IMG/VR virus record: IMGVR_UViG_3300033068_001916 | Source: a virus | Taxonomy: Duplodnaviria; Heunggongvirae; Uroviricota; Caudoviricetes | DNA: 64,000 nt | Reading direction: 5' to 3' (one strand) | In this document: positions 5,917 through 39,865 of the stretch, one piece after another | Layout of the letters: each line of letters begins with the position of its first letter | How positions within the stretch are numbered: position 1 is the stretch's first letter | The notes under the pieces: model-generated | Database searches by the model: none | What the model was told of the DNA's origin: nothing | Seen by the model: the letters and a program-made list of their open reading frames with translations, nothing else | Translations under genes and position numbers: made by a program

Positions 5917-6501
5917 ATGGATTTGACAAACTACGTAGACTGGTGCATAGCACAACACGATAACACCAACCACATGTATGACAAATATTTGCCATATTCA
6001 TTTCATCTAAGAATGGTTGATAGAGCAGCACAGCAATTTGAACATCTCCTGGATGACACAAAAGACATGCAAACCGGAAAATCTAGGGAGATTCTAGACG
6101 GAAGCAGATTGGGATTCGTTTCTCTTAGAATGGCTTGCAGAAAGGCTGGATGGGGTCACGATACAATAGAGGATACAAGAACATCCTATAATGATGCAGT
6201 TAATCATCTAGGAAAGGATGCAGCTGATATCGTTTATGCTGTTACTAACGAGAAAGGTAAAAATCGTGCAGAAAGAGCCAATGACAAATACTATGCTGGG
6301 ATAGTAGCAACGCCTGGAGCAGTTTTTGTTAAACTTTGTGACAGAATAGCTAATGTTCAATATGGTAAAATGACAGGTAGCGGTATGTATGATAAGTACA
6401 AAAAGGAGAACCCAAATTTCATTACTAAACTTGGTGGTGATGATAAGAACCACGAGTTAGCTCCAATGTTCGAATATTTAATCGATCTATTTAAAGATTA
6501 A
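5917..6501 (+). CDS. SpoT/RelA-type HD-domain (p)ppGpp hydrolase-like (Mesh1-like small alarmone hydrolase)
   Basis: GWGHDTIEDTRTSYNDAVNHLGKDAADIVYAVTNEKGKNRAER matches the RelA/SpoT HD block LLHDvvEDT...FG..va.lV.gVTK. Confidence 0.6.
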   Translation: MDLTNYVDWCIAQHDNTNHMYDKYLPYSFHLRMVDRAAQQFEHLLDDTKDMQTGKSREILDGSRLGFVSLRMACRKAGWGHDTIEDTRTSYNDAVNHLGKDAADIVYAVTNEKGKNRAERANDKYYAGIVATPGAVFVKLCDRIANVQYGKMTGSGMYDKYKKENPNFITKLGGDDKNHELAPMFEYLIDLFKD

Positions 6502-6503
6502 TC

Positions 6504-7397
6504 ATGATAAACAATTCAAATAAATTAGAGATCTTCGAGAATTTTATAGCTTTACCTAAAAAAGTAAAAGATTCACCTAGCGCTATCAATATTTCACCAG
6601 TAACAGTTGGCGGAGCTAGCTTTCTTAATGCGATGGCTAGAGATGCTGATAATCACGATAACTTCCTTAGAGATTCTATAGAGGTCCGTGCTGTTGACTA
6701 TCTACATTACATCCATATGCACGAGCACACATTTAAAAGTTGGCTCAAGCTGAAAGCTGCAGAAATTCTATTTCCAAACAAGAAGGTTAAAAAAATAAGA
6801 TATCAATCAGTAGATGAATTCTTTAATGATGTTAAGAATTCAATCAAAACGCTGGAGGTAAATCCAGGTTCTGTTGAGTTTTATACTAATGCAATAGAAA
6901 CTGCAAAGGAAAATGGACAGATAGCATTTTTAGAAATACTACGAGATAAGAAGGACGGGGTTCTTGCCGAAGCTAAGCTTCTAGAGGTTGGTGAGATTAA
7001 ATATGTTACCGAGGAAGATGTTGTTAAGTTTTATAAAAAAGCAAATCTTGGAAACAAGATGCTAAAGCTCACCTGGATGAAAAACTACGCTAGAATGATA
7101 CCTGAAGAGGTCATAGCGGAAAAGAAAAAGTATGATGCATCAGAATTATTTGATAATTATGTTATTTTACATTTCGATAAGCATGACAACTCAACCAAGA
7201 TGACAAAAGCGGAGGTAGAGAAAGCTAAGGATCCAATACTATTTGGAGTTCTCAAGGGGACTAGAAATTTATACTTTATAGGTGACTGGATTGATGAATA
7301 TTGCGATCTAACACTGGACAAATTTCTGTCTACACTCGAGATGGAGGAGGCAAGAAAGCTATCCGAAGATTCCATGAAAGAGGGATTAAAAATGTAA
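6504..7397 (+). CDS. hypothetical protein
   Basis: 297-aa ORF. Confidence 0.55.
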   Translation: MINNSNKLEIFENFIALPKKVKDSPSAINISPVTVGGASFLNAMARDADNHDNFLRDSIEVRAVDYLHYIHMHEHTFKSWLKLKAAEILFPNKKVKKIRYQSVDEFFNDVKNSIKTLEVNPGSVEFYTNAIETAKENGQIAFLEILRDKKDGVLAEAKLLEVGEIKYVTEEDVVKFYKKANLGNKMLKLTWMKNYARMIPEEVIAEKKKYDASELFDNYVILHFDKHDNSTKMTKAEVEKAKDPILFGVLKGTRNLYFIGDWIDEYCDLTLDKFLSTLEMEEARKLSEDSMKEGLKM

Positions 7398-7416
7398 TTT
7401 TTTTCATCATTTATTT

Positions 7417-7445
7417 TTTTATTCCGAAAGGATTTCATATATTTG
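7417..7445 (+). promoter_or_regulatory. conserved phage promoter
   Basis: tttttttattccgaaag ... TATATTTG at 7438-7445. Confidence 0.55.
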
Positions 7446-7464
7446 CAATGTAATTAATAAGAGA

Positions 7465-7716
7465 ATGACAAGGGAAGAAAAAATACAAAAACGTAAATCT
7501 AGAGCTAACAATCGCAGATCTAAAAGAAACGCAAAGTATTTTAATAAGATCAGGATTGCTAGAGATATAGGATTTGGTGTTCCCTTGCATGCAGTTGATA
7601 AAGATGGTATGGTTACTGGATCTTGGCCGGATCCAGATTCGCCAACAGGATATACACAAAAATGCTCTTATGATGCATGGGGTACATGTCAAAGCCCATG
7701 CAACGGAGATTGTTAA
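7465..7716 (+). CDS. hypothetical basic Cys-rich protein
   Basis: ORF downstream of the conserved promoter. Confidence 0.5.
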   Translation: MTREEKIQKRKSRANNRRSKRNAKYFNKIRIARDIGFGVPLHAVDKDGMVTGSWPDPDSPTGYTQKCSYDAWGTCQSPCNGDC

Positions 7717-7720
7717 AAAT

Positions 7721-7779
7721 TGGGAGGTAGCTCAGTTGGTTAGAGCTCATTTTCGAAGGTTCGAGTCCTTCCCTCCCAA
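7721..7779 (+). ncRNA. 59-nt tRNA-like minihelix that lacks an anticodon arm
   Basis: TGGGAGG-TA-GCTC-AGTTGGTTA-GAGC-tcattttc-GAAGG-TTCGAGT-CCTTC-CCTCCCA-A. The 7-bp acceptor, canonical D arm and T arm are perfect, but only 8 nt lie between the D and T arms. Confidence 0.6.
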
Positions 7780-7980
7780 CTAAGCCAGTTTTTATGATGC
7801 ATCTCTATCGACAGAGAACCTTGTTTTAGATTTAATAAATAAGGTTAATGTGGTCGGGTAGTTTAAAAGTTTCCTAACCTTAAGGAAAAGTAAGGATGGT
7901 TTTGCAGAAGACAGTTTCCTCGCCTAGTGGAAAAGTCAGTATAAGAAGGGATACCGGTCGGCTTTAACCGGTTCCCAACA

Positions 7981-8104
7981 GGGGGAATAGGCCAGCGGTG
8001 TGGCGCGTCTCTAGCTTACATCATAGATATAATCTATGACGTCTTTCCACTAAGACGAAGTTTAGATGATTCAAGTGGCACGGGTTCGATTCCCGTTTCC
8101 CCCA
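7981..8104 (+). ncRNA. tRNA-like element with a ~90-nt structured insert
   Basis: Acceptor GGGGGAA/TTCCCCC, T arm ACGGG-TTCGATT-CCCGT, D-arm-like GGCC..GGCG. The insert contains the hairpins ATAGAT-ATAA-ATCTAT and CGTCTT-TCCACTA-AAGACG. Confidence 0.5.
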
Positions 8105-8351
8105 CTAACCGCGTCACTGTAAGATGCAGTGATAACTGGACACGAAATAAGGTGGTTCCGCGGATCACCAATAAAATCGTTCGAGGCAGAGTCCAAGTCC
8201 AGGGTTAGGATAAAGCTATTCGCTATTGAGCATACCATCCGATGGGTCAGCGAATTAACCATTGGAGACGCGTGGGGTATACTGACGTTGGTCTAACATA
8301 AATCCCCAACTGTAGATACGTACTAAGGGCTGTAAGGAAATTCTACAAAAA

Positions 8352-8504
8352 GGTTTGGTGGCAGAGTGGCTTAATGCGTCGGTCTCGTCCAATATGATCG
8401 GTTAAGAGTGAACTCCTTAATCTTTTGCTCATGGACCAAAACGGATGGCCCGTTTCGAGAAGCAAATATCGAAGGGCCCGCAGGTTCGAATCCTGCCCAA
8501 ACCA
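8352..8504 (+). ncRNA. tRNA-like element (153 nt) with a long insert
   Basis: Acceptor GGTTTGG/CCAAACC, T arm GCAGG-TTCGAAT-CCTGC, discriminator A. Confidence 0.5.
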
Positions 8505-8591
8505 CAAAACAAGTAAAACGCAAACGCACGGGCCCTAGATGCATAAGGTGAAGCGCACCCCGTATACTGGATGACCTCTGTTTTTTTTAAC

Positions 8592-8712
8592 GGCCAAATG
8601 GCGAAATTGGAAGACGCAGTGGCAAGTGAGTAATAGAGTAAGCGTAAAATAGCACTGCTCCCCATTTCGGGTCACAACCGCTAGATTACAGGTTCGATCC
8701 CTGTTTTGATCG
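8592..8712 (+). ncRNA. tRNA-like element (121 nt) with a class-II D arm and an insert
   Basis: GGCCAAA-TG-GCG-AAATTGGAAGA-CGC ... ACAGG-TTCGATC-CCTGT-TTTGATC. One acceptor mismatch. Confidence 0.45.
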
Positions 8713-8917
8713 CAAAATGAAATATGTTCTTTGTGGTGAATGAACAGAATTTTATAGAATAGACGCATTGGTGATAGTTAGGTAAGGAGAGAACTGCAGT
8801 GGGCTGCTGCACTACACCTCAAGAAAAATCGAAAGATAAAACAACCAATTTAGATAGGAGAACTAAGCTATTCTATAAAATTTAAAAAAACAATTTTAAA
8901 ATAATTGTTATTGTTAT

Positions 8918-8965
8918 TTTTTTAATCCGAATTATTACCATATATTTGTGTAATAATTCGGATTT
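8918..8965 (+). promoter_or_regulatory. conserved promoter embedded in a 15-bp perfect inverted repeat
   Basis: aatccgaattattac-CATATATTTGTG-gtaataattcggatt, then a T-run; -7 box at 8941-8948. Confidence 0.5.
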
Positions 8966-8985
8966 TTTCATTTAAACAAAAACAT

Positions 8986-9201
8986 ATGGATTCAGAAAAA
9001 TTAAAGGAGGCTAAAGATTTTAGAAGAAATTCAGGTATATTTTCAATTCTATGCTGGATATTAAGCATATTACTAATGTACAAGGGTGACACAGAAACTG
9101 TTGATATCTGCTCTATCCTATTTGTAGGTGCAATATTTTTTACTTATATTTATTTTAGTATGGGAAAATTAATAAATGAATACGAAAATCTTGAAAAGTA
9201 A
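8986..9201 (+). CDS. small membrane protein
   Basis: ORF after the promoter with the palindrome; has a TM segment. Confidence 0.45.
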   Translation: MDSEKLKEAKDFRRNSGIFSILCWILSILLMYKGDTETVDICSILFVGAIFFTYIYFSMGKLINEYENLEK

Positions 9202-9740
9202 TGGATAATCAAAACCAAACAATAGAGGAAAGATTCCTAGATTCTCTAAGAAAGGGAAGCGATAAAGAACCCAAACTTTTTATCTATTGGAATCTTTTCA
9301 GTATTCTGCATCTTGGAGATCCTTATTTTCTGGGTCATATAGTTGACGAATATAAACAATTTCCGGAAGACAGCTGGTGGTTTATTAATTTCCATAAAGC
9401 AATAAGACAATGTGACTATTTTAGTGACTCCTTATGCTTTTCAGAATCGACCATAACTATGGAGGAATCTAAGAGGATGAACACCATTCTTGGTTTAAGA
9501 AGAAGAATCAGAAGGGAGATGAAACTCGAGGATTCTGAGATTGACGATCCAGAATATCTGGAACTTGGTGAGGAATTATCCAAACTTAGAAGAAAATATC
9601 AGGTTCATAGAAGAACATCAATTTCCGGACATCTTGACTCTATACTCTACCAATGTATCAGTAATGGTAACGATGAGCTTTTTAACTTCATGAGAAAATT
9701 TCTTTCTGAAAATATACAATTAGAACCAAAGGAATTATAG
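9201..9740 (+). CDS. hypothetical protein
   Basis: 179-aa ORF that ends with a TAG stop. Confidence 0.55.
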   Translation: MDNQNQTIEERFLDSLRKGSDKEPKLFIYWNLFSILHLGDPYFLGHIVDEYKQFPEDSWWFINFHKAIRQCDYFSDSLCFSESTITMEESKRMNTILGLRRRIRREMKLEDSEIDDPEYLELGEELSKLRRKYQVHRRTSISGHLDSILYQCISNGNDELFNFMRKFLSENIQLEPKEL

Positions 9741-13553: not shown

Positions 13554-14045
13554 ATGAAGGTAATATTTCTTGATATCGATGGGGTACTGAATGTTTATTC
13601 ACATGACCATGACGAATTTGGAAGCCAATTCCATAGTCACTTCGTTGACAATCTTAAAAGGATCATAGACGAAACCGAAGCCAAAATTGTTATATCATCA
13701 ACTTGGAGATATGCAGGATTGGAAAGGATGAAGAAGATGTGGGAGAAAAGAGGTCTTCCGGGGGATGTTATAGACGTAACTCCCGATTGCACATACCTCT
13801 TCAATGAGGGGTTATTGGAATTAACCACTAGAATTGAGAGAGGATATGAAATTGAATACTGGCTGGATGAAAATCCAGGGGTTCAGAAATATGTTATTCT
13901 TGATGACAATGACGATTTCTTACCCTACCAGAGAGGTAATTTTGTAAGAACGTCAAATAATATCAATCATCCAGATTGTGTTGATATAGGATATGGATTA
14001 ACGAACGAGTGTACTAATAAAGCAATAAGAATATTAAATGGATAA
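13554..14045 (+). CDS. HAD-superfamily phosphatase (possible polynucleotide 3'-phosphatase)
   Basis: N-terminal VIFLDIDGVLN carries the DxDG(T/V) HAD motif I. Confidence 0.5.
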   Translation: MKVIFLDIDGVLNVYSHDHDEFGSQFHSHFVDNLKRIIDETEAKIVISSTWRYAGLERMKKMWEKRGLPGDVIDVTPDCTYLFNEGLLELTTRIERGYEIEYWLDENPGVQKYVILDDNDDFLPYQRGNFVRTSNNINHPDCVDIGYGLTNECTNKAIRILNG

Positions 14046-17639: not shown

Positions 17640-18476
17640 ATGAAAAACTTTAGTCTTGGCGATCGTATGAAGGAATTCTACGAAGACCGTTTTAGATACT
17701 ATGTTCCACGCAGAACATACACATTAATCAGAATTGATGGAAAAGCTTTCCACACTTACACAAGGGGTTTGGAATCTCCGTTCGACGCAGGGTTAATCGT
17801 GGATATGAATGAAACCGCAGCTTACCTTTGTAAAAATATACAGGGAGCAAAATTTGGATACGTTCAATCCGACGAGATCAGTATATTGATCACGGATTTC
17901 GAGGAAAGAGACACACAGATGTGGTTCGATGGGAATTTACAAAAGATGGCTTCCGTTGCAGCTTCTATGGCGACCTCTAAATTCAACGAATTGAGAGTTG
18001 ACAGATACATCAGGGAAAAGTTTAATAGTGGGATTGAAACCATAACACCTTTGTGGATAGAAAATCTGAAAAGAGTTAAAAAAGCAGAGTTTGATGCGAG
18101 GGTATTTCAGATTCCACAGAAGAGCGAGGTTGAGAACTATTTTATATTCAGACAACAAGACGGAACTAGAAATTCGGTTCAATCAGTTGCTCAGAGTTTA
18201 TATTCACAGAGTGAATTAAACGGAAAGAAAGAAAAGGATATGCAGGAGATGATATTCCAGAAGGGAATTAATTGGAATGACTATCACTTCAGAGAGAAAA
18301 GAGGTGGAATTATCGCTAAAGTACCAACAATGGTTGAAGGTAGAGATGGTCAGGTTGAAAGACTTAAGTGGCAAATGATACCAACACCTATATTCACTCA
18401 GGAGAGGGAATTTATGGATCAGATGATTCCAGACTTCGTGATTAAAACGAAACACCAAGATGAAGTTGAAATATAA
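17640..18476 (+). CDS. thg1: tRNA-His guanylyltransferase Thg1-like protein (3'-5' polymerase that repairs tRNA 5' ends)
   Basis: RIDGKAFHTYTRGLESPFDAGLIVDMNETA ... FGYVQSDEISILITDF ... ASVAASMATSKF matches Thg1/TLP conserved blocks. Confidence 0.75.
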   Translation: MKNFSLGDRMKEFYEDRFRYYVPRRTYTLIRIDGKAFHTYTRGLESPFDAGLIVDMNETAAYLCKNIQGAKFGYVQSDEISILITDFEERDTQMWFDGNLQKMASVAASMATSKFNELRVDRYIREKFNSGIETITPLWIENLKRVKKAEFDARVFQIPQKSEVENYFIFRQQDGTRNSVQSVAQSLYSQSELNGKKEKDMQEMIFQKGINWNDYHFREKRGGIIAKVPTMVEGRDGQVERLKWQMIPTPIFTQEREFMDQMIPDFVIKTKHQDEVEI

Positions 18477-21336: not shown

Positions 21337-22242
21337 ATGATAATAAATCTTTCTGAACCGTGCAGCTACGGTATAAAATTTAAAGTCTCTAAATTTCCTG
21401 ACGGACAACAATCCATCACCATATTAGAGGGCGAAGTTCTCAAACATGAAATGTTTGAGAAAATGGAGCCAGTGGTAATAAAGTCAAGGATAACATCCTT
21501 CCTAGATCTTGAGCTAGTTATTTGTGCAAACAAAGCTCTTAGAGAGCTTGGAGTTAAAAAAACTTCCCTAGAGATATCATATCTATTGGGGGCAAGATCT
21601 GATAGAAAATTTGAAACAGGTAGCGTTAATTACATTAAAGAAGTACTTGCTCCTATTATCAATTCACAGAAATTCACCAGGGTAACAATACTTGATCCTC
21701 ATTCCGATGTGACAGAAGCTTGTATCAAGAAGTTCAAAAAATCAACACAAATCACTAGTGGACTGATAACATTTGTTCTTAGAGATTATTTCAATAACGG
21801 AACCATCGATTATTCAGGAATGCGTTTAATTTCTCCTGATGCAGGGGCTCTCAAAAAAGTTTATGATGTTGCCGAGTCTATCGGATACAGAGAAGAAATA
21901 GTTATAGCTTCCAAACACAGGGACGTTAAGACTGGAAAAATAACACATACTGATGTTCCAGTAAACGTGGATGATCTAGATATAGATTTCTTTATTCTAG
22001 ATGATATAATAGATGGAGGACGCACATTCATCGAGATTGCTAAAGCTCTAAGGGAAAAAGGAGCGACTGGTAAGATTTTCCTTGTCGCAACGCACGGAAT
22101 TTTTTCAGCTGGTTTAAAGCCATTAAATGAGAACTTCGATGGGATCTACACAACGAATAGCTATGTTGATATCAGCGATCCAGAATTCTCACTGAGAAAC
22201 GATAACGAGCTTCATAAACTTAAACAATTAAAAGTAATATAA
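21337..22242 (+). CDS. prs: ribose-phosphate pyrophosphokinase (PRPP synthetase)-like; may instead be an ADPR-PP synthetase of the NARP1 type
   Basis: PRPP-binding loop FFILDDIIDGGRTFIEIAKALREKGA versus vLVDDmIDTGGTl; N-terminal KFPDGQQSITILEGEV versus rFsDGEi.v.i.esvRG. Length is 301 aa. Confidence 0.65.
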   Translation: MIINLSEPCSYGIKFKVSKFPDGQQSITILEGEVLKHEMFEKMEPVVIKSRITSFLDLELVICANKALRELGVKKTSLEISYLLGARSDRKFETGSVNYIKEVLAPIINSQKFTRVTILDPHSDVTEACIKKFKKSTQITSGLITFVLRDYFNNGTIDYSGMRLISPDAGALKKVYDVAESIGYREEIVIASKHRDVKTGKITHTDVPVNVDDLDIDFFILDDIIDGGRTFIEIAKALREKGATGKIFLVATHGIFSAGLKPLNENFDGIYTTNSYVDISDPEFSLRNDNELHKLKQLKVI

Positions 22243-30394: not shown

Positions 30395-30958
30395 ATGAAA
30401 AAAGCAATACTTTTTATTGGCCTACCTGGATCAGGGAAAACAACTATAGTAAATAGGGATTATTCCGAGGAATATACCGTAGTTTCTGCTGACAATATTA
30501 AACAGGGACATCCCGACTACGATCCTAATGATCCTGAACCACTTCATCAATGGAGCGTAAAGGAAGCAGAGAATCAAATGAATATTCTATCCGACCTTGG
30601 ATATTCCATCTGCATGGATTCTGGAGGTGTTAATAACTCATACTCTCTTAGAATAATCTCTATGCTAAAAACCAAAGGTTATCATATAACATTAGTTTAT
30701 GTTGAAACACCTCTGGAAATATGCTTAGAAAGAAACAAAAAAAGGGAAAGAAAAGTTCCAGAGCAAGCTATAATAGAGAAATCTAAAATGCTAGAGTCAT
30801 GTCTGGAAAAACAAAAATCAGTAGCTGATGATTATTTACATATACAATATAGAGAGAGTAAAAAATATTCATTCCCTTCTTTATCTATAGCAGGTAAATA
30901 CATCAGATCGATAATTCATCCAAGAAACAGGGAATTAATTTATAATCAGCAAATATAA
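30395..30958 (+). CDS. polynucleotide 5'-kinase (T4 Pnk kinase-domain-like P-loop kinase)
   Basis: AILFIGLPGSGKTTIVNRDY versus T4 Pnk IILTIGCPGSGKSTWAREF; ERNKKRERKVPEQAI versus KRNSKRGTKAVPIDV. Confidence 0.55.
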   Translation: MKKAILFIGLPGSGKTTIVNRDYSEEYTVVSADNIKQGHPDYDPNDPEPLHQWSVKEAENQMNILSDLGYSICMDSGGVNNSYSLRIISMLKTKGYHITLVYVETPLEICLERNKKRERKVPEQAIIEKSKMLESCLEKQKSVADDYLHIQYRESKKYSFPSLSIAGKYIRSIIHPRNRELIYNQQI

Positions 30959-31827: not shown

Positions 31828-33498
31828 ATGGAAAAATTAAACAAGACTTTTAAAATCAATCCCCTTTACGAATCGGATGGTTATAAGGTTGGACACAAAG
31901 CAATGTTAGCTGAAAATACATCGGTTGAATATTGGACTTGGATCCCTAGAAGCATAAAATATATGCACCCATCGATTGATGGCATTATGTCAGCCGGTGA
32001 ACAATTGGTATGGAGATACATTCACAGTAGTTTCCAGGAGTTATTCTTTGACCAACCAGTTGAAATGGCAGAAAAATTTGGTAGAGATATGTCCAAGTAT
32101 TTAATGATGGATTATGATGCTAATCACTTCTCTGAATTACATAAACTTGGTTATCTTCCGGTTAGAATCAAGGCTATACCAGAAGGGACATTCACAAAAC
32201 CAAACATTCCACACATGACAGGGATCAACACTGTTGATGGCTATGCTTGGCTTGGGCTTTATTTGGAAACGTTGGTATCTAAATTGGCTTGGCAATTACC
32301 TACAGCTGCTACTATTGCTCACAGATTCAAACAGAATGCTGTTGAGTGGGTTACCAAAACAGATCCAGAAAATCTTTGGTTAGCTGATTTTATGTGTCAC
32401 GATTTCCACAGCAGAGGTGGAAATCCATTCACATCAATCGCAGTTGGACTAGGACACGCAATGAGTAACTCAGGTAGTGACACATTAAACGTTATCCCAG
32501 CATCGAGATACTACTATGATTTCGACGAAAACGAAGTTCCAGTTTATAGCGTTAATGCTTCTGAACATAGTGTGACATGTACAGGTATTTTCTTCTACGA
32601 GAAAAAATTAAGAGGCGGTTTATTAAACCATGAAATTCTAAAATACTACCAATCTGACGCTACATCTGAAGGATCGGTTGACGCTCCAGATTACTTGGCA
32701 ATTGCGGAATTGCTTAATCTTCGTGATTGGCTTAAAAAATTCCCTAAAGGTATTCTTTCAGTGGTTTCGGACACAATGGATTTATGGAAAGTTATCACAC
32801 ATATTCTACCAAGGCTTAAAGAAGAAATTCTTGCTAGAGATGGTAAATTGGTAATTCGTCCTGATTCAGGAGATCCAGTAGATATTATCTGTGGTAAATA
32901 TCCAACATTTGGAGATGGATTTACATGCGAGGATAAAGGTGTTATTGAATTACTTTGGGATCTTTTCGGAGGCGAAGAAACTTCAACAGGGTACAAAAGA
33001 TTAGATTCACACATCGGAGCAATCTATGGGGATTCGATCAATCTAGAAAGACAAATTGCTATTTATACAAGATTAGCAGATAAAGGTTTTGCATCTACCA
33101 ATATCGTGGTTGGAGTTGGATCTTACACATATGTTATGTTAACAAGAGACTCTGCTGGATACGCAGCTAAAGGAGCTTGGTTCTCAACTAAAGAATTTGC
33201 AGGTGTTGATCCAGACGGTCAAACTGATTATACTATCACTGAGTACAATATCTATAAAGATCCCGTAACCGATAATGGTACTAAAAAATCATTAAAAGGT
33301 TTCTGCCAGGTATTCAATAACAGACCAGATGCTTTACCTTATGAGATTAAGTATGACGGGAAAGATCAATTGGAGGTAAATACCGAATGTACTAAAGAAC
33401 AGGAAGATGGTGGATTATTACAGCTAATCTATGAGGATGGCAAATTCCACAATCAGGCGAGTCTAACTGAGATTAGAGAACGTTTGAAAGTTCAATAA
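31828..33498 (+). CDS. nadV: nicotinamide phosphoribosyltransferase (NAMPT/NadV family; could be a NARP1 Namat-type enzyme)
   Basis: DGYKVGH versus DSYKVTH; HDFHSRGGNPFTS..SGSDTL versus HDFGYRG....KGTDTV; LVIRPDSGDP is the classic PRTase block. Length is 556 aa. Confidence 0.8.
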   Translation: MEKLNKTFKINPLYESDGYKVGHKAMLAENTSVEYWTWIPRSIKYMHPSIDGIMSAGEQLVWRYIHSSFQELFFDQPVEMAEKFGRDMSKYLMMDYDANHFSELHKLGYLPVRIKAIPEGTFTKPNIPHMTGINTVDGYAWLGLYLETLVSKLAWQLPTAATIAHRFKQNAVEWVTKTDPENLWLADFMCHDFHSRGGNPFTSIAVGLGHAMSNSGSDTLNVIPASRYYYDFDENEVPVYSVNASEHSVTCTGIFFYEKKLRGGLLNHEILKYYQSDATSEGSVDAPDYLAIAELLNLRDWLKKFPKGILSVVSDTMDLWKVITHILPRLKEEILARDGKLVIRPDSGDPVDIICGKYPTFGDGFTCEDKGVIELLWDLFGGEETSTGYKRLDSHIGAIYGDSINLERQIAIYTRLADKGFASTNIVVGVGSYTYVMLTRDSAGYAAKGAWFSTKEFAGVDPDGQTDYTITEYNIYKDPVTDNGTKKSLKGFCQVFNNRPDALPYEIKYDGKDQLEVNTECTKEQEDGGLLQLIYEDGKFHNQASLTEIRERLKVQ

Positions 33499-33521
33499 TA
33501 CATCGAAATATAAATTAAAAA

Positions 33522-33551
33522 AATCCTGAATATATCATTCAGGATTTTTTT
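33522..33551 (+). terminator. intrinsic terminator
   Basis: Hairpin aatcctgaa-tatatcat-tcaggatt followed by T8. Confidence 0.65.
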
Positions 33552-33576
33552 TATTCGAAAGAATTTTATATATTTG
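33547..33576 (+). promoter_or_regulatory. conserved phage promoter
   Basis: ttttttttattcgaaag ... TATATTTG at 33569-33576. Confidence 0.55.
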
Positions 33577-33594
33577 TGGAATAAAGAAATGTAA

Positions 33595-34002
33595 ATGTAC
33601 GAAGAGATAATAAAGCTACAGACAGCTAAATTAGCCGCTGAGAAGGGATTCAATATAAGACAGTACCAATACTTCGATACCAATGGAGAATTAGTAGAAC
33701 TCTATTCATGCTATTGTGATGATAGGGATGTTAATATATGTAGCTGTGGTGCAGAGGACATATATGATGCAGGGGAAAATGCAATACAAGCACCAACACA
33801 GTCACTACTTCAGAAATGGCTCAGAGAACAGAGAACACCAATAATAGTTACAGCAACCACTGATTTCGTAGCATGGGAGGTTCAAATACAACATCCTGAT
33901 AAGGGTCTATTTACAATAACTAAGAATTCTGAAGATAGATGGTTCAATTCATATGAGGAGGCTATGGAGGAAGGTTTAATTGAAGCACTAAAATTGATAT
34001 AA
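33595..34002 (+). CDS. paralog family A protein
   Basis: LQTAKLAAEKGFNI ... APTQSLLQKWLREQRTPIIV. Confidence 0.5.
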   Translation: MYEEIIKLQTAKLAAEKGFNIRQYQYFDTNGELVELYSCYCDDRDVNICSCGAEDIYDAGENAIQAPTQSLLQKWLREQRTPIIVTATTDFVAWEVQIQHPDKGLFTITKNSEDRWFNSYEEAMEEGLIEALKLI

Positions 34003-34409
34003 TGAGAGATGATGTAATATTATTAGATACCGCTAAATTAGCAAGGGATAAAGGATTTAAGATACCATGTGACGCAAGGTATTATTGGGATTATAAATGG
34101 CAACTTTCCCTAATGGGAGCAGTAAAATGCACGAACAGTGGTGATTTGAAGGACGGGGAAAATGTTAGCTATTGCGCACCAACGCAATCACTAATTCAAA
34201 AATGGCTAAGGGATGAACATAAAATATATGTTACGGTTTCTTCAATAGAGTACGGCGAATCCATCATTTTTGACTATTCGATAAAACAAAAAGCACAGAT
34301 CTTCGGGTTTTCTGATATTCAATCAAAAATACAGGAATTTAAAACATACGAAGAAGCATTAGAGGCTGGAATAATAAAGGCACTTAATTTAATAAAATCA
34401 AAAAAATAA
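34002..34409 (+). CDS. paralog family A protein
   Basis: LDTAKLARDKGFKI ... APTQSLIQKWLRDEHKIYV. Confidence 0.5.
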   Translation: MRDDVILLDTAKLARDKGFKIPCDARYYWDYKWQLSLMGAVKCTNSGDLKDGENVSYCAPTQSLIQKWLRDEHKIYVTVSSIEYGESIIFDYSIKQKAQIFGFSDIQSKIQEFKTYEEALEAGIIKALNLIKSKK

Positions 34410-35407
34410 TGGGAAGTTTTTACACACTGTGTTCGATCACAAATCAGACTATTGTCGATGGTCAAGAGCTAATGGTTCAATTCATGATTCCAAGAAAAAC
34501 GCCGGAGGATAGCGGTGGATTATTAGTAAAAATGTTCATAGAGAGCACCAAGAAAAATGGCGTCGATGAAGCAGTAAAATCTTGGGAACAGAGCACAAAA
34601 AACTGGGGTAATAGAATGGAACATAAGGGAATGGAGGTTAGCAACGACGGAGCTACCTCTGACTATATTCCATTCGGTCCAGCAATCAGAGGTAAGTACA
34701 ACGATTGTGGAGACGTGGTTCCTTGCGACGATGGGGAAACTCAAAAGAGAGTTAAATTAATGGAAGGTATATTCTGTGGAATTCCATTTTCAAGTTTAAT
34801 GGACTTGTCAACTGATGACAGATGGTACACATATGGAATGAATGATGATGATAAAATGTGGAAGCTTAAAGGAGTTGATGATAAGTTACCTAGTTTTATA
34901 TTGGATTTGTGTAAGACTTTGACAGTTACGTATATTCATGCTCCAGTATACGATGCCCTAGTAGATCCTGAGTTTTCTCCTGAGGGAAGAAAAGACAGCT
35001 ATGAAAAGAAATGGCAGGAGGAGTATATCGAAAATATAAGAAAAGGAGTAGCTTCGATAATCAAAGTTGGTGAGGGTGACAGAGAGGATGAGGAATTCTC
35101 AGAAAAATTAATTCTTACGTATAGAAGATCGAAAATTTATTTTCTAGAACGAATGAGCGAGAAATTTTCATTGACCTTATTTGCTTCGTGCTTAAGAGAG
35201 GGGACTGACTTTGAATGGCTAATAGAGACATCCAGATTCTTATCGTCGATGAGCGGGATGTGTTTTAAATTACAAAGATCACAGTACGGATCTCAACACT
35301 TCAATTGGGAAGGATGGAAAAAAATAATCGGATCTTTGGAACCATCGATAGCTGAGATGAAATCTCATTACGGCTATGATGAAGACGAGGACGAAGATGA
35401 TATATAG
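34409..35407 (+). CDS. hypothetical protein
   Basis: 332-aa ORF. Confidence 0.5.
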   Translation: MGSFYTLCSITNQTIVDGQELMVQFMIPRKTPEDSGGLLVKMFIESTKKNGVDEAVKSWEQSTKNWGNRMEHKGMEVSNDGATSDYIPFGPAIRGKYNDCGDVVPCDDGETQKRVKLMEGIFCGIPFSSLMDLSTDDRWYTYGMNDDDKMWKLKGVDDKLPSFILDLCKTLTVTYIHAPVYDALVDPEFSPEGRKDSYEKKWQEEYIENIRKGVASIIKVGEGDREDEEFSEKLILTYRRSKIYFLERMSEKFSLTLFASCLREGTDFEWLIETSRFLSSMSGMCFKLQRSQYGSQHFNWEGWKKIIGSLEPSIAEMKSHYGYDEDEDEDDI

Positions 35408-35424
35408 TTAAATTAAATAAACTG

Positions 35425-36171
35425 ATGAGTATATACAACGAAATTTATGGGCTATGTGAAGCCAAAAATTTAGGACCTATTTTCGTTAACGGAAAGGATC
35501 TTACACCAAGGCTGGAGTTCATAGTTAACCTTTTGGATAAGGAGGGAATAGAATATGAAATTGACAGATTCCCTGTTAATGATACAACCGACGGGTTCAA
35601 CGTCAATCTAATTGGTAATTCAAATCAATTTGTTGTAGCACATCATGATATAGTTAATCCAAAATCTGACAATGCAAACGATAATAGTTGTTCAGTTATC
35701 AATGCAATAGCCCTTAAGAAATTGGTTCCAAGTATAAATGTATCAATACTCGACGGAGAGGAATATGGAGGATTTGGATCACAGCATCTAAGTGAAAGAA
35801 TAAATGCAGGTGACTTTGGTGATATTAAATGGGTTCTTAATTTTGAACTAACTGGTAGAGGCGGGGAAGATTTCTTTCTTGGAGACTACCCAGGGCCATT
35901 AACCGATCATATACAATCGATGTTCGATTGTCCAATAGTTAGAACGCCATTCAATGATTCTGTTATTTTTAGAAAAAATGGAATCGACTCAGTTGTTATA
36001 AATCCATTACCACCGACTGAAGAAAAAACCCCAGTCGTTTGCTCTGATGGAACATTCTTGGATTTCAAAATACTTTTTCTGTGTCACAGCATGGAAGATT
36101 CAGTGGACAAAATATCTACCGATGATATGAAGGCATTCGTTGAGAATGTAGCAGCAAAAATAATAGCATAA
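35425..36171 (+). CDS. hypothetical protein (possible metallohydrolase)
   Basis: ORF with a VVAHHDIV segment. Confidence 0.45.
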   Translation: MSIYNEIYGLCEAKNLGPIFVNGKDLTPRLEFIVNLLDKEGIEYEIDRFPVNDTTDGFNVNLIGNSNQFVVAHHDIVNPKSDNANDNSCSVINAIALKKLVPSINVSILDGEEYGGFGSQHLSERINAGDFGDIKWVLNFELTGRGGEDFFLGDYPGPLTDHIQSMFDCPIVRTPFNDSVIFRKNGIDSVVINPLPPTEEKTPVVCSDGTFLDFKILFLCHSMEDSVDKISTDDMKAFVENVAAKIIA

Positions 36172-36172
36172 A

Positions 36173-36313
36173 ATGAAAACTTTCGAGAATATAAAAACTT
36201 TCAAATCATTCATAAGCAATATAGATGAGGATGAGGAATTCCCTAAAAAAATAAGGATTAAAAGGCCTAGGGAAAAGAAAATAATAACGATTCCAAACTG
36301 GGGAACATACTAA
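36173..36313 (+). CDS. small hypothetical protein
   Basis: Unlisted 46-codon ORF before a terminator. Confidence 0.25.
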   Translation: MKTFENIKTFKSFISNIDEDEEFPKKIRIKRPREKKIITIPNWGTY

Positions 36314-36337
36314 TAAAAAAATCCGGATTTATCCGGA
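36306..36337 (+). terminator. intrinsic terminator
   Basis: Hairpin atccggatt-tatccggat followed by T9. Confidence 0.65.
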
Positions 36338-36344
36338 TTTTTTT

Positions 36345-36375
36345 TGTGATTTATTTTTTTATTTCGAAATGATTC
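36345..36375 (+). promoter_or_regulatory. conserved phage promoter
   Basis: tttttttatttcgaaat ... TATATTTG at 36368-36375. Confidence 0.55.
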
Positions 36376-36418
36376 CATATATTTGCATTCAATAATATTA
36401 ACAATTAATAATTAAAAA

Positions 36419-38338
36419 ATGAAGGAACAAATTGCACATTTATTAGTTTATGCTTGGTGGATCATTCCAATTTTAGCAATACTATTTTACAAATTTACTC
36501 TCCGAATGTTTTTCGGGATGGTGATTATACCAGAGGATAAAATTGGTCTAGTTACCAAAAAATTCGTACTTTTCGGGTCAAACAAAACACTTCCGGACGG
36601 TAAGATCATTGCTCTTAATGGGGAACCTGGATTTCAAGCAGACACATTAGCACCAGGTTTATATTGGGGTTACTGGGCTTGGCAATACACGATTGACCAG
36701 TCACCTCTAGTAGTTATCGGAAAGGGAAAAATTGGTTTAATTACAGCTAAGGACGGTGCTCAATTACCAACAGGTTCCATTCTTGCCAGACACGTCGATA
36801 GCGATAACTATCAATCAGCCAGAGATTTCTTAGCAAATGGTGGACAACGAGGTAAGCAAGTAGGGTATCTTAATAACGGTGTATATCGTATAAATAGGCA
36901 TTTATTTGAAATCTATGATGCTGATATCACTTATATTGAAGATGGAATGGTTGGTGTAGTAACAGCATTAGATGGTACGCCACTTACTTTAGGCTCAATT
37001 GCAGGATCTGTTGTTGATGGACACAATAACTTCCAAGACTTTGATAAATTCTTAGAGAATGGCGGGCAAAGGGGTCTTCAGGTTCAGGTTATCCAAGCAG
37101 GTTCATATTCAATCAATCCATGGGCTATAGAGATAGAAAAACAAGAAATGACACAGATCCCAATTGGACACGTAGGTGTTGTTATTTCTTATGTTGGTGA
37201 CGAAGGTGAGGATACAACAGGAGAAACATTTAAGCACGGTAACATCGTTAAAAAAGGACAAAAAGGAGTTTGTATAACACCATTGGATCCGGGTAAATAT
37301 GCGATTAATCCATACACACAAAAAATCGAGATAGTCCCAACTACAAATTTAGTTCTTAACTGGGCGAATGCAAGATCGGAGTCACATAATTTAGATAAGA
37401 ATTTAAGTACCATTACTGTTAGATCTAAGGATGGATTCCCATTCAATCTTGACGTATCTCAGATCATACACATTCCTTCGACAGAGGCACCTAAGGTTAT
37501 TGCCAGATTTGGATCAATGTCAAATCTAGTATCACAGGTATTGGAGCCAACCATCGGCAACTATTTCCGTAACTCTGCTCAGGATTCTGATGTTATTGCG
37601 TTCTTATCAACAAGACAGCAACGTCAAAATGCAGCTAAAGAAAACATCGCTAAAGTTCTTGACGAGTACAACGTACATGCAGTAGATACATTAATTGGTG
37701 ACATCGTTCCACCAGAATCATTAATGAAAACTCTAACCGATCGTAAGATTGCTCAGGAGGAAGAGGTAACGTTCGAGACCCAGAAAAAAGCACAGGATCA
37801 GCGTAAAACACTAGAATCAGCTAAAGCTTTAGCTAATATGCAAGGTGAAATGGTAAGTGCACAACAATCGGTTGAGATCTCACAAAGAAAAGCGGAAGCT
37901 GAGGTTAAGAGATCTGAAGGGGAAGCAAAAGCAATCGAGATTAAAGCTGGAGCAGATGCGAAAGCTAAAGAGTTGATGGCAAAAGCTGATGCAACACAGA
38001 TCAAATTAACCGGGGAAGCTGAAGCGTCTAAGATTGAAGCAATTGGTAAGGCAACAGCAGAAGCTTACGAGAAACAAGTTAAAGCGATGGGTGCTGATAA
38101 CTTTGGACAATTAAAAGTTGTTGAGTCTATCGGTGTTAATAAGATCAAAATCATTCCTGATGTTCTTATCAGCGGAGATAATGGATCTGGTGGACCTATC
38201 TCAGGATTGCTTGGAATGGAGTTATTAAATCAGGTTAATGCTAAGAAAGCAGAAGCAGCAGCTAATGCAATCAGCGAAGGACCAGATTTTACGAACACCC
38301 AAGAAAAATCGGAAGGACCTAGAAAAGGTAATAAGTAA
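36419..38338 (+). CDS. flotillin/SPFH (band-7, YqiK-like) membrane protein
   Basis: N-terminal TM segment. C-terminal Ala/Glu/Lys-rich repeats (AEAEVKRSEGEAKAIEIKAGADAKAKELMAKADA...) are typical of the flotillin tail. Length is 639 aa. Confidence 0.6.
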   Translation: MKEQIAHLLVYAWWIIPILAILFYKFTLRMFFGMVIIPEDKIGLVTKKFVLFGSNKTLPDGKIIALNGEPGFQADTLAPGLYWGYWAWQYTIDQSPLVVIGKGKIGLITAKDGAQLPTGSILARHVDSDNYQSARDFLANGGQRGKQVGYLNNGVYRINRHLFEIYDADITYIEDGMVGVVTALDGTPLTLGSIAGSVVDGHNNFQDFDKFLENGGQRGLQVQVIQAGSYSINPWAIEIEKQEMTQIPIGHVGVVISYVGDEGEDTTGETFKHGNIVKKGQKGVCITPLDPGKYAINPYTQKIEIVPTTNLVLNWANARSESHNLDKNLSTITVRSKDGFPFNLDVSQIIHIPSTEAPKVIARFGSMSNLVSQVLEPTIGNYFRNSAQDSDVIAFLSTRQQRQNAAKENIAKVLDEYNVHAVDTLIGDIVPPESLMKTLTDRKIAQEEEVTFETQKKAQDQRKTLESAKALANMQGEMVSAQQSVEISQRKAEAEVKRSEGEAKAIEIKAGADAKAKELMAKADATQIKLTGEAEASKIEAIGKATAEAYEKQVKAMGADNFGQLKVVESIGVNKIKIIPDVLISGDNGSGGPISGLLGMELLNQVNAKKAEAAANAISEGPDFTNTQEKSEGPRKGNK

Positions 38339-38429: not shown

Positions 38430-38963
38430 ATGATAACACTCATAAAACCTGATAACGAAACGTTATCACCATCGGATGATACTATATCCATCTTTCTGGG
38501 AGGAACCATAGAAATGGGGAATTCAGATGATTGGCAAACCGAAATCTATAATAGACTAAAAGATATAGACGAGACCATTGGGTTTTTCGATAATATAAAT
38601 CTTTTTAATCCAAGAAGAGACTCGTGGGATTCATCATGGGTACAGGAGCAATCCAATCCACAATTCAATGGACAGGTTAACTGGGAACTTGATAATATTG
38701 AGGATTCCAATATAATCTTTTTTAATATTCTACCAGAATCAAAAAGTCCAATAACACTTATGGAGATAGGATTATGCAAGGATAAAGGTGCTTCTGTTAT
38801 AGTCTGCTGTCCTGATGGTTTCTATAGAAAGGGTAATGTTGATGTAGTTTGCTCAAGATATGGTATGCAGCAATATAAAGATATTGATTCAGCATTTGGT
38901 GCTTTACTTACTGAGATAAATAGAGCAGGTAGAAGCAAAAATGTAATAACAAAAAATAAATAA
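38430..38963 (+). CDS. nucleoside 2-deoxyribosyltransferase-like protein
   Basis: ISIFLGGTIEMG...W matches the NDT-like FLGG block. Confidence 0.4.
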   Translation: MITLIKPDNETLSPSDDTISIFLGGTIEMGNSDDWQTEIYNRLKDIDETIGFFDNINLFNPRRDSWDSSWVQEQSNPQFNGQVNWELDNIEDSNIIFFNILPESKSPITLMEIGLCKDKGASVIVCCPDGFYRKGNVDVVCSRYGMQQYKDIDSAFGALLTEINRAGRSKNVITKNK

Positions 38964-38965
38964 AA

Positions 38966-39865
38966 ATGAGCGAAATTAAAAAACACATAGCTGTATCACA
39001 AGTAGAATCAGGCCATGGGACTTTAAGCTATCTAACATCAGAACAACTTGAAACAAAAACTGGTGAAACTGCTGAAATAGGCATAGCTTTAAGAAATAGA
39101 CACGTCGATCTTGAAACATATCAGGCAAAATCTGAGATTAGTCAGGAACAGATCAGTGATCTTAATTTATTCCATGGTATAAATGCTATTGAAATGGTCG
39201 AATCTGCATTATTGAACGAATCGAGAATTTCACAAGAAAAACAAATCTATAAGAAACTTAAATTGCTTGGTTACGAATCAAACAGAAAGTTATGGACAAA
39301 ATTTCAGCTTTTCGCTAATAAATGGACTGGATACATACCGATGGTCAATGTATCGGAAGCAGGATCACTCATCAGAAGAATTACATTATTATCTAATATC
39401 ATAGCTACGACATCTAGAATGGGACCAGCGAAATTTATTATAATCAGTCCTGGCCTATTACATCACTTCGTAAATGAGAATGGATTCACACCAGAAGATC
39501 ACGATTCATTAATGGATATAAATGCTGGTAGCATCTATAAATGTGGAACATACAGGGATAATTTGGAGATACTTATAAATCCTACACTTAAATGGACAGA
39601 TAAAAGAGTTGTTATCGGGAGAGATACACTTAGTCCGAACGAAGGTGTATATCTTCTTGAACATATTGAGGGTCCACAATATACAAGAATAGATAGAGTT
39701 AATTACGGATCACTAGTTCCTATGACTGAAACCATATTAAGAACAAGATATGGGTTAGTTCACACACCTAATGCATCAAAAAATTATATAACAATAACAT
39801 GTACAGAGAAAAAACATAATATTATTACACATATTATGGAAAAGTACTTTAAAAGAAAAAAATAA
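38966..39865 (+). CDS. hypothetical protein
   Basis: 299-aa ORF. Confidence 0.5.
   Translation: MSEIKKHIAVSQVESGHGTLSYLTSEQLETKTGETAEIGIALRNRHVDLETYQAKSEISQEQISDLNLFHGINAIEMVESALLNESRISQEKQIYKKLKLLGYESNRKLWTKFQLFANKWTGYIPMVNVSEAGSLIRRITLLSNIIATTSRMGPAKFIIISPGLLHHFVNENGFTPEDHDSLMDINAGSIYKCGTYRDNLEILINPTLKWTDKRVVIGRDTLSPNEGVYLLEHIEGPQYTRIDRVNYGSLVPMTETILRTRYGLVHTPNASKNYITITCTEKKHNIITHIMEKYFKRKK

Follow-up and report, generated by a model that had tools for sequence, protein, structure and literature searches.

What kind of RNA keeps the body of a tRNA but lacks the arm that reads the codon? The question is raised by a stretch of about 1 kb in a 64,000-nucleotide DNA from a tailed virus (Caudoviricetes; IMG/VR record IMGVR_UViG_3300033068_001916), the whole of which is referred to as the window. 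A preliminary description made from the letters alone had placed four tRNA-like elements there, at 7721-8712; we number them elements 1 to 4 and call them the first array, and a second group at 51.4-53.6 kb is termed array 2. The Rfam tRNA model (RF00005) matched all four elements on the plus strand at the positions first assigned to them, scoring 47.2 bits for element 1 (7721-7779), 32.8 bits for element 2 (7981-8104), 42.9 bits for element 3 (8352-8504), and 27.6 bits for element 4 (8592-8712), the last slightly under the gathering score of 29. In the Rfam alignments, 18 consensus positions of the anticodon arm were deleted from element 1, with 4 nt in their stead, and the arm of elements 2-4 was split by 40-81 nt; in element 3 a 5-bp stem flanked the 81-nt insertion. 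None of the four elements had a canonical 5-bp anticodon stem with a 7-nt loop. Elements 1-4 are tRNA-derived RNA genes that are unable to decode. The preliminary description had held that the locus would be ordinary if a standard tRNA finder called normal tRNAs here, and ARAGORN in its default mode called no tRNA or transfer-messenger RNA (tmRNA) across the 64-kb window. Permissive Rfam scans of both arrays returned tRNA matches only and no other RNA family. The list of open reading frames (ORFs) held no long plus-strand ORF at 7717-8985, in agreement with the lack of coding potential first noticed in the 1 kb or so after the gene at 7465-7716.

Element 1 is the simplest of the four, a 59-nt tRNA-like RNA without an anticodon arm, as judged from Rfam, its minimum-energy fold, and its orthologues. 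Its sequence reads exactly as first described: a 7-bp acceptor (TGGGAGG/CCTCCCA) followed by discriminator A, a D arm (GCTC-AGTTGGTTA-GAGC), a linker of only 8 nt (TCATTTTC), and a T arm (GAAGG-TTCGAGT-CCTTC). The minimum-energy fold consisted of exactly the acceptor, D, and T helices (z = -2.4), and the deletion of the anticodon arm in the Rfam alignment bears out that this RNA cannot decode. Element 2 has a tRNA body in which a long stem with two hairpins replaces the anticodon arm, as determined by Rfam and the consensus structure (fold z = -3.3). By the Rfam matches, element 3 has a tRNA body with a 3-bp class-II-type D stem and a central domain of about 100 nt, and the weaker element 4 has a leucine (Leu)-type D arm and a central domain of about 70 nt. 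Acceptor pairing was 7/7 in elements 1-3 and 6/7 in element 4, whose single mismatch is C3xA70, and a discriminator was present. Also recognized in the Rfam alignments and the sequence were the D and T arms, including G18G19 and the T54-T55-C56-R57-A58 loop.

Related genomes were then compared. The protein encoded at 6504-7397, which flanks the first array, has 82-83% identical copies on the IMG/VR contigs L001 and L002 (430 and 434 kb) and L003 and L007 (80 and 119 kb). Given these 430- and 434-kb relatives, weak DNA similarity of window 31828-38338 to a 642-kb uncultured phage, and a gp23-like capsid protein at 38966-39865, the source is a huge phage. The array itself showed no DNA similarity to deposited phages. 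Orthologues of element 1, 57 nt long and with tRNA-model scores of 40.9, 43.6, and 34.2 bits among them, occurred in L002, L003, and L007, and near-identical copies occurred in the metagenome contigs L348 and L349. Their acceptors carry compensatory variants (GAGG/CCTC, TACG/CGTG, GATA/TATC, and GAGA/TCTC). A decayed tRNA gene had been foreseen should no discrete small RNA be expressed and the 59-nt element prove not to be conserved in relatives; it is kept in all five of these genomes.

Element 2 was present in L001-L003 with its acceptor, D, and T arms and the two-hairpin long stem in place of the anticodon arm; the consensus of four orthologues had 40 pairs, none broken and 3 covarying, located in the D stem, the T stem, and the insert. 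At the same slot in L348 and L349, between flanks of about 95% identity and with the same acceptor (GGGGGAG/CTCCCCC), lies a 90-nt element with a textbook D arm, which at the anticodon position has a hairpin capped by a UUCG tetraloop (TCTT-CAGTA-CTTAC-UUCG-GTAAG-GAACA-AAGA). Element 3 was about 95% conserved in L348 and L349, where a compensatory change from GGCCC/GGGCC to GACCC/GGGTC supports a local hairpin, and in L349 a G-to-A substitution breaks the "anticodon stem" used by ARAGORN and Rfam. At the position of element 4, L001, L003, L007, L348, and L349 carry other tRNA-like elements, which differ between lineages. The acceptor and T arm are invariant in paralogues and orthologues alike, and the D arm is mostly retained; what varies is the central region, which may be 8 nt long, form a forked stem or a UUCG hairpin, or run to about 100 nt.

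Element 1 is not alone in its design. IMG/VR was scanned with the pattern TAGCTYAG-N3-7-AGAGC-N7-17-GTTCRANTC, which leaves the acceptor unconstrained, and at least 120 viral matches were obtained. Among the 119 viral matches listed, acceptor pairing was 7/7 in 76 and 6/7 in 23, whereas with the 3' strand slid as a control the same matches gave 7/7 in none and 6/7 in one. An alignment of 74 sequences had 98.5% of its cells paired, with double changes at all seven acceptor pairs and at four T-stem pairs. Its covariation score was 0.808 versus 0.161 in shuffles, none of 500 shuffles scoring as high, and slid controls gave 0.115-0.168; mismatches concentrated at pair 1:72 (14/74). The class so defined consists of a 7-bp acceptor, 2 nt, a D arm, a 6-13-nt linker, a T arm, and the closing acceptor strand; its elements are 56-64 nt long, and the DNA around them ranges from 28 to 69% GC. 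The covariance model built from the alignment (R1) gave element 1 68.2 bits and its orthologues in L003, L007, and L002 58.9, 58.4, and 55.5 bits, all four being training members, and ordinary T4 tRNAs scored 23-42 bits, with their anticodon arm read as an insertion. By model R1 and its length, element 1 is a member of this class. The preliminary description had called it extreme; this holds in that it is a tRNA minus the anticodon arm, but not in the sense of a one-off, since a widespread class has the same design.

The same pattern yielded at least 120 matches in a collection of bacterial genomes. Perfect acceptors were found in 35-43 of the bacterial matches listed, depending on the counting method, and these came from Firmicutes, Actinobacteria, Proteobacteria, and Bacteroidota; the bacterial members presumably lie in prophages. 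In some bacterial loci matching the pattern (L243, L250, L293, L294, and L302 among them), "NN" stood exactly at the position of the anticodon arm. Since such matches may be masked or collapsed normal tRNAs, N-containing matches were left out of the bacterial counts. A different arrangement was seen in about 40 Bacteroidota loci, including L209, L223, L230, L301, and L319 (Chitinophagaceae, Flavobacterium, Ferruginibacter, and others), where large tRNA-gene arrays hold chains of modules made of a D arm, the linker AACAGACAAnn, and a T arm. Within a chain, pairing across a tetraloop joins the 3' acceptor strand of one unit to the 5' strand of the unit after it, as in TCCCGTC-GAAA-GACGGGA; the "acceptor" stems are thus closed hairpins joining consecutive modules, and Rfam recognized only the surrounding ordinary tRNAs.

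The genomic surroundings of the class were examined as well. About one third of class elements adjoin ordinary tRNA genes. Orientation agreed with that of the downstream gene in 61 of 72 cases, and in 22 cases the next ORF begins 2-34 nt past the element; the terminase large subunit lies about 0.8 kb downstream at 14 loci, and the small subunit 34 nt downstream at 5. The 45 nt upstream of class elements had a minimum free energy of -12 kcal/mol or lower in 45% of cases versus 15% in shuffles, and this structured stretch is often a terminator-like hairpin. On the 3' side, the trailer reads N73, C74, and then mostly W and A, as in normal tRNAs of the same contigs, and a few elements encode CCA. 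Position -1 was a pyrimidine in 63 of 85 elements (45% background), and position +1 was G in 38 of 85. Clusters of ORFs near 97 class members comprised only terminase subunits and other ordinary phage genes, without a conserved partner protein. An origin as attP remnants is argued against by the lack of an integrase cluster among the 12 largest of these ORF clusters. BLAST searches from five IMG/VR loci or elements hit only flanking genes or ordinary tRNAs, so that no named cultured phage with a clean arm-less element was found; REQ3 and phiCD508 have none. The arm-less class has no Rfam family of its own, and a full-text literature search, which was not exhaustive, turned up no account of phage genes for tRNA-like RNAs that naturally lack the anticodon arm.

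Insert-bearing elements recur on a larger scale in array 2 (51470-53546, plus strand), where Rfam and sequence patterns identified about nine tRNA-bodied elements, among them 51470-51627, 51870-51962, 52063-52175, 52341-52447, 52610-52699, 52821-52948, 53040-53170, and 53402-53546, most with the D arm GGCGGAATTGGTAGACGC. These elements are interleaved with structured spacers and small ORFs. The D arm of element 4, GGCGAAATTGGAAGACGC, corresponds to GGCG[A/G]AATTGGTAGACGC, a tRNA-Leu-type D arm found in about eight elements of 51.4-53.6 kb; this match links the two loci, as the preliminary description had proposed from the shared D arm. The related genomes have 1-4 copies of array 2 elements versus about 9 in the window. 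Of the 13 window elements, 12 have perfect acceptor and T stems. Discriminator bases within the Leu-type family vary (A, G, or T), several members having A73.

Several individual members of array 2 were unusual. In 51470-51627, a hairpin is inserted in the D loop (GGCGGAA-[insert]-CAGACGC) in addition to the replaced anticodon region, and orthologues of 157-160 nt occur at L327 6360-6516, L328 6356-6512, and L329 6499-6658. A second T-arm-like hairpin (GGTCGGTTCGAGTCCGAT) takes the D-arm position in 51870-51962 and in L007 6659-6750, and a T-loop-like hairpin lies in the central domain of 52341-52447, as it does in RNA2 of phage T5; duplicated T-loop motifs thus recur among array elements and T5 RNA2. 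By eye, the spacer at 51630-51860 (about 230 nt) resembles L007 6760-6990, a spacer of the first array, so spacer modules appear to move between the two arrays together with the tRNA-like elements. The small ORFs 53204-53392 and 53564-53793 are sandwiched by array 2 elements with gaps of about 10-35 nt. In L006, a 388-kb viral contig, three 80-nt elements (389-468, 633-712, and 998-1077) have perfect acceptors and T arms (GCCCCTG...CAGGGGT A) and received no ARAGORN call, though they adjoin three normal tRNA-Leu genes.

The DNA between and around elements 1-4 was found to be conserved too. Spacer 1 (7780-7980, plus strand; conserved and structured by alignment and consensus fold) has about 88% identity to L001-L003 versus 75-84% in the flanking coding DNA, and its consensus fold is made up of 48 pairs, 3 of which show double compensatory changes. 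Spacer 2 (8105-8207, plus strand) is compact and structured by the same two approaches. Its 5' end directly adjoins the discriminator of element 2, starting at position 74 of that element, and its two ends pair with each other (UAACC/GGUUA). It is nearly invariant across six genomes; the consensus fold comprises 34 pairs, of which none is broken or changed on both sides, and the single-sequence fold agrees with it (z = -2.5). Moreover, L351, a 2097-nt marine metagenome contig, matched window 8075-8299 (the end of element 2, spacer 2, and beyond) at 88%. Conservation of the two spacers equals or exceeds that of the elements themselves. The spacers between the elements are therefore conserved structured RNAs and part of the elements' own unit. 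Complementarity of inserts and spacers to the window, as for antisense targets, was no better than in shuffles; the longest cases, 14-15 nt, were reached in 1-2 of 100 shuffles, among 13 tests.

On its 5' side the unit includes a small cysteine-rich ORF of 83 amino acids (7465-7716, plus strand, from the ORF list), which ends 4 nt before element 1 and whose product had no Pfam, PHROG, or NCBIfam match. This gene and element 1 co-occur: both are present in L002, L003, L007, L348, and L349, and both are absent from L001, in which window 7466-7785 is missing. A motif scan placed a promoter-like box, TAtaTTTG, upstream of the small gene (7438-7445, plus strand), a weak assignment. TAnnTTTG occurs on the plus strand of 7000-9300 only at 7438 and 8941, both within the longer common motif CATATATTTG; window-wide, 34 occurrences versus 29.6 expected indicate no enrichment, and a consensus promoter and terminator scan of 7300-9300 gave nothing significant. 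On the 3' side, a conserved noncoding tail (8713-8880, plus strand) aligned at 75-94% to L001-L003, L007, L348, and L349. It had no significant Rfam match, its sole ORF has 8 codons, and it may be another RNA or a leader.

What, then, could RNAs of this design do? We favor the reading, at a probability of roughly one half, that they are nondecoding tRNA-shaped RNAs which are excised by host tRNA-maturation enzymes and thereby punctuate a polycistronic transcript. The small gene at 7465-7716, the four elements, and the structured spacers would probably form one transcript. Host RNase P and 3'-end enzymes would cut both ends of each tRNA-shaped module, which would fix the ends of the mRNA upstream and of the spacer RNAs, in the manner of plant-mitochondrial t-elements and of MALAT1/mascRNA. 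The same cuts would free compact tRNA-shaped small RNAs, predicted to be stable like T5 RNA1 and RNA2 and possibly to receive CCA, in which the tRNA body might serve as a scaffold for a variable central domain. The parts that have been kept, namely the acceptor, the T arm, and mostly the D arm, are those read by RNase P, 3'-end nucleases, and the CCA-adding enzyme. For RNase P, the anticodon stem-loop is dispensable and the T-/D-loop region matters (PMC4975455), and t-elements direct cleavage by RNase P and RNase Z and so set the ends of mRNAs in vivo (PMC1920247). Excision by host tRNA processing is favored because the kept parts fit the needs of these enzymes and because the t-elements set a precedent. 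Consistent with this reading, tRNA-like folds directly abut another RNA or an mRNA end at element 1, which starts 4 nt past a stop codon, at spacer 2, and at the array 2 ORFs; if the array 2 elements were excised, ORFs 53204-53392 and 53564-53793 would become monocistronic mRNAs. The N73-C74 trailer and the -1/+1 bias of the class share their direction with normal tRNAs, and as sequence features they are indirect signs of tRNA-like end processing.

A number of points, however, weigh against excision and punctuation. The bias toward a pyrimidine at -1 and G at +1 is weaker than in real tRNAs, and cleavage at the element ends in this phage is a prediction only. Morons and ordinary tRNA genes are found in the same kinds of places as many class members, so that the context of the class is not decisive, and the promoter and terminator assignments are weak. 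In addition, punctuation alone leaves unexplained both the well-kept D arm with its G18G19/T-loop elbow and the nine diversified copies of array 2, against 1-4 in relatives. The kept elbow and the diversified copies suggest that the released RNAs themselves do something.

One such activity, a possible but rather doubtful one, is that the released RNAs act in trans as decoys or sponges by binding proteins which recognize the tRNA elbow and acceptor. Anticodon nucleases, other tRNA-cutting defense nucleases, toxins that modify the acceptor end, aminoacyl-tRNA synthetases, and modification enzymes would be the candidate targets; without an anticodon loop, the decoys could not be cut there and would be unable to disturb decoding. 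The elbow, made of the D arm and T loop, has been kept though a minihelix would suffice for cleavage, which speaks for such a role. So does the wide spread of the class over hosts of 28-69% GC with no conserved partner protein nearby, which would fit a universal host target, and so does the quick turnover of copy number and inserts, as an arms race predicts. Yet inhibition of a defense system by an RNA of this kind is not known, and the literature search found no paper describing it. A decoy role is compatible with excision from a polycistronic transcript, as a downstream function of the excised RNAs. The broader version, in which the ~58-nt mini-tRNAs are a widespread phage and prophage family acting in trans as uncleavable decoys or sponges and the insert-bearing arrays are an expanded arsenal, is somewhat more doubtful.

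The gene content of the window bears on the same proposal. Thg1 had been named among the candidate partners in the preliminary description, and a Thg1-family gene is indeed encoded in the window: the product of 17640-18476 (plus strand) is a Thg1-like protein (TLP, a 3'-5' nucleotidyl transferase; Pfam PF04446, 1.1e-25), the best solved relative of which is 4KGK (1.1e-56), deposited as "Thg1-like uncharacterized protein." This protein is a possible partner of the tRNA-like RNAs. Other products are a HAD domain belonging to the RNA-repair type known as "Swiss Army Knife" (HAD_SAK_2; 13554-14045, plus strand; Pfam PF18143, 1.1e-27), a P-loop kinase (AAA_33/Zeta; 30395-30958, plus strand) that weakly resembles the kinase modules of Pnkp and PSTK, and an HD phosphohydrolase (5917-6501) whose similarity to RelA/SpoT hydrolases is weak. 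Together with the Thg1-like gene they look like an RNA-repair gene set. NAD and nucleotide salvage genes were also observed (31828-33498, 21337-22242, and 38430-38963), of the NAPRTase/NAMPT-family, PRPP-synthetase-like, and nucleoside 2-deoxyribosyltransferase-like types, and phage NAD-reconstitution genes have been reported to counter NAD-depleting defenses. To the extent that the Thg1-like, SAK-type HAD, PNK-like kinase, HD hydrolase, and NAD salvage genes look like a counter-defense or RNA-repair region, they favor the decoys; nevertheless, the RNA-repair genes lie 10-25 kb away, are nonadjacent, and were seen in one genome only.

It is quite unlikely that the elements are functional decoding tRNAs with small introns, whose splicing would restore an anticodon arm, like the "enigmatic introns" of Lak megaphages. 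Lak phages are reported to encode tRNAs with introns (PMC6784885), ARAGORN in its intron mode called nine "intron-containing tRNAs" in the window, and the 5-bp stem around the 81-nt insertion of element 3 would suit an interrupted arm. The ARAGORN calls proved to be uninformative, as they persisted after the inserts were shuffled: in 9 of 10 elements an intron-containing tRNA was still called in 35-96% of 200 shuffles of the central region. Element 1 has no anticodon arm at all, and the UUCG variant is likewise beyond rescue by splicing, since this orthologue of element 2 has a capped hairpin for the arm. Removal of one insert did not give a conserved canonical anticodon arm. The predicted splice sites are noncanonical (loop positions 31-39). 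The anticodon is not the same from one orthologue to the next (CAC, AAC, or none), and the anticodons called mismatch the Leu-type bodies. In element 3, the compensatory change backs the local hairpin and the substitution in L349 breaks the proposed anticodon stem. Furthermore, no ribozyme family was found in the Rfam scans of both arrays, and neither EndA nor RtcB was found among the approximately 60 ORFs searched in the window, itself 64 kb of a genome of about 430 kb.

Aminoacylated nondecoding carriers, for example Leu-type bodies charged by leucyl-tRNA synthetase (LeuRS) that feed tRNA-dependent transferases or titrate the synthetase, are very unlikely. LeuRS does not read the anticodon, and a tRNA-Leu-type D arm has been retained both in the array 2 family and in element 4, with A73 in several cases; some class members encode CCA. 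By analogy, Leu-type bodies may be aminoacylated: a minimalist E. coli tRNA-Leu without anticodon and variable arms was reportedly charged in work by Larkin et al. in 2002. Against carriers stand the discriminators, which vary among A, G, and T within the Leu-type family, the lack of a G3:U70 signal (G:U at 3:70 in 3 of 85 class elements), and the failure to find a transferase gene nearby among the approximately 60 window ORFs searched. That the elements are decaying tRNA pseudogenes without function is highly improbable: element 4 has its acceptor mismatch and sub-threshold score, array content differs among close relatives, and most inserts fold no better than shuffles, but the acceptor and T stems are perfect in nearly all window elements, orthologues hold their stems via compensatory changes, the region is more conserved than the adjacent coding DNA, and the same precise architecture occurs with strong covariation in more than 100 unrelated phages.

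The annotations of T4 and T5 have carried tRNA-like stable RNAs of unexplained function since early sequencing. The locus described here presents their design in a huge phage, where it recurs in two arrays and is clearly subject to purifying selection, and the locus exposes a simpler and far commoner relative, a tRNA with its anticodon arm cleanly removed, on more than 100 viral and dozens of bacterial contigs and with textbook covariation. If the punctuation reading is true, the principle of mitochondrial t-elements and mascRNA extends to phages; a decoy role would make the RNAs a new class of counter-defense based on RNA. For annotation, tRNA finders miss these elements or, in intron mode, make of them spurious intron-containing tRNAs.

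Among known RNAs, the tRNA-like domain of tmRNA is similar in having an acceptor and T arm but no anticodon, and is itself an RNase P substrate with a CCA end; it differs in having no D stem, a G3:U70 alanine identity, pseudoknots, and a tag reading frame. A tmRNA was rejected, as ARAGORN found none in the window and position 3:70 is G-C or U-A; the permuted tmRNA model gave a trivial T-arm match only, at 12.8 bits. YrlA, a bacterial Y RNA, likewise contains a nondecoding tRNA-like module that has both a D arm and a T arm. It is circularly permuted, with a closed acceptor and its ends in the Ro-binding stem, whereas the window elements have open acceptor ends. A Y RNA was rejected on these open ends, the lack of an Rfam Y RNA match, and the lack of Ro60 among the ORFs searched.

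Closer likenesses are found among RNAs that define the ends of other transcripts. The mascRNA and MEN-beta small RNAs resemble element 1 in being tRNA-like RNAs of about 58 nt. Their own excision by RNase P makes the mature 3' end of the upstream RNA, and the small RNA so released does not decode. These RNAs are eukaryotic, keep a reduced anticodon-like stem, and are unrelated in sequence. Like the window elements, t-elements are noncanonical tRNA-like folds with a conserved T arm; they lie inside polycistronic transcripts and receive nontemplated C/A (PMC1920247). They differ in being organellar, in having more degenerate tRNA features, and in not being arrayed. Lak megaphage tRNAs are alike in being over-long tRNA-like genes of huge phages that bacterial tRNA finders cannot classify (PMC6784885). 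Their anticodon and isotype are assignable and intron-less alleles exist, whereas no consistent anticodon arm could be recovered here, although the Lak "enigmatic introns" may be a related phenomenon.

The stable RNAs of T4 and T5 come nearest to the insert-bearing elements. Species 1 RNA of T4 (rnaC) is a stable RNA adjoining tRNA genes, and its 3' 93 nt have a perfect T arm (CCGGGTTCGAATCCCGG), an acceptor (ACGGAAC/GTTTCGT), and a noncanonical middle; it differs in its weak D region (17.5 bits, tRNA-Sec model), an extra 45-nt 5' extension, and its single copy. In the T5 record (NC_005859), RNA1 (144 nt) and RNA2 (125 nt) are entered as "tRNA-like stable RNA with unknown functions" and RNA3 as "putative tRNA-like RNA." Like the arrays of the window, these RNAs of 73-144 nt belong to a phage cluster of tRNA and noncoding RNA genes with small ORFs in between; the T5 cluster holds five other stable RNAs as well. 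In RNA1, a Leu-type D arm (GCCGGAATTGGTAGACGG), a T arm, and an acceptor surround a central insert of about 75-80 nt, and this RNA scored 24 bits to the tRNA model over a 131-nt match within its 144 nt; the acceptor of RNA2 is 8 bp long, and RNA2 also possesses a D-like arm, a T arm, and the central T-loop-like hairpin found in window 52341-52447. The T5 RNAs share no detectable homology with the window past generic tRNA parts, they are surrounded by 24-25 normal tRNAs where the 64-kb window has none, and none shows the clean loss of the anticodon arm seen in element 1. T5-type tRNA-like stable RNAs do, by contrast, share their architecture with elements 2-4 and array 2, and the insert-bearing elements thus have a long-known, unexplained precedent in the stable RNAs of T5 and T4.

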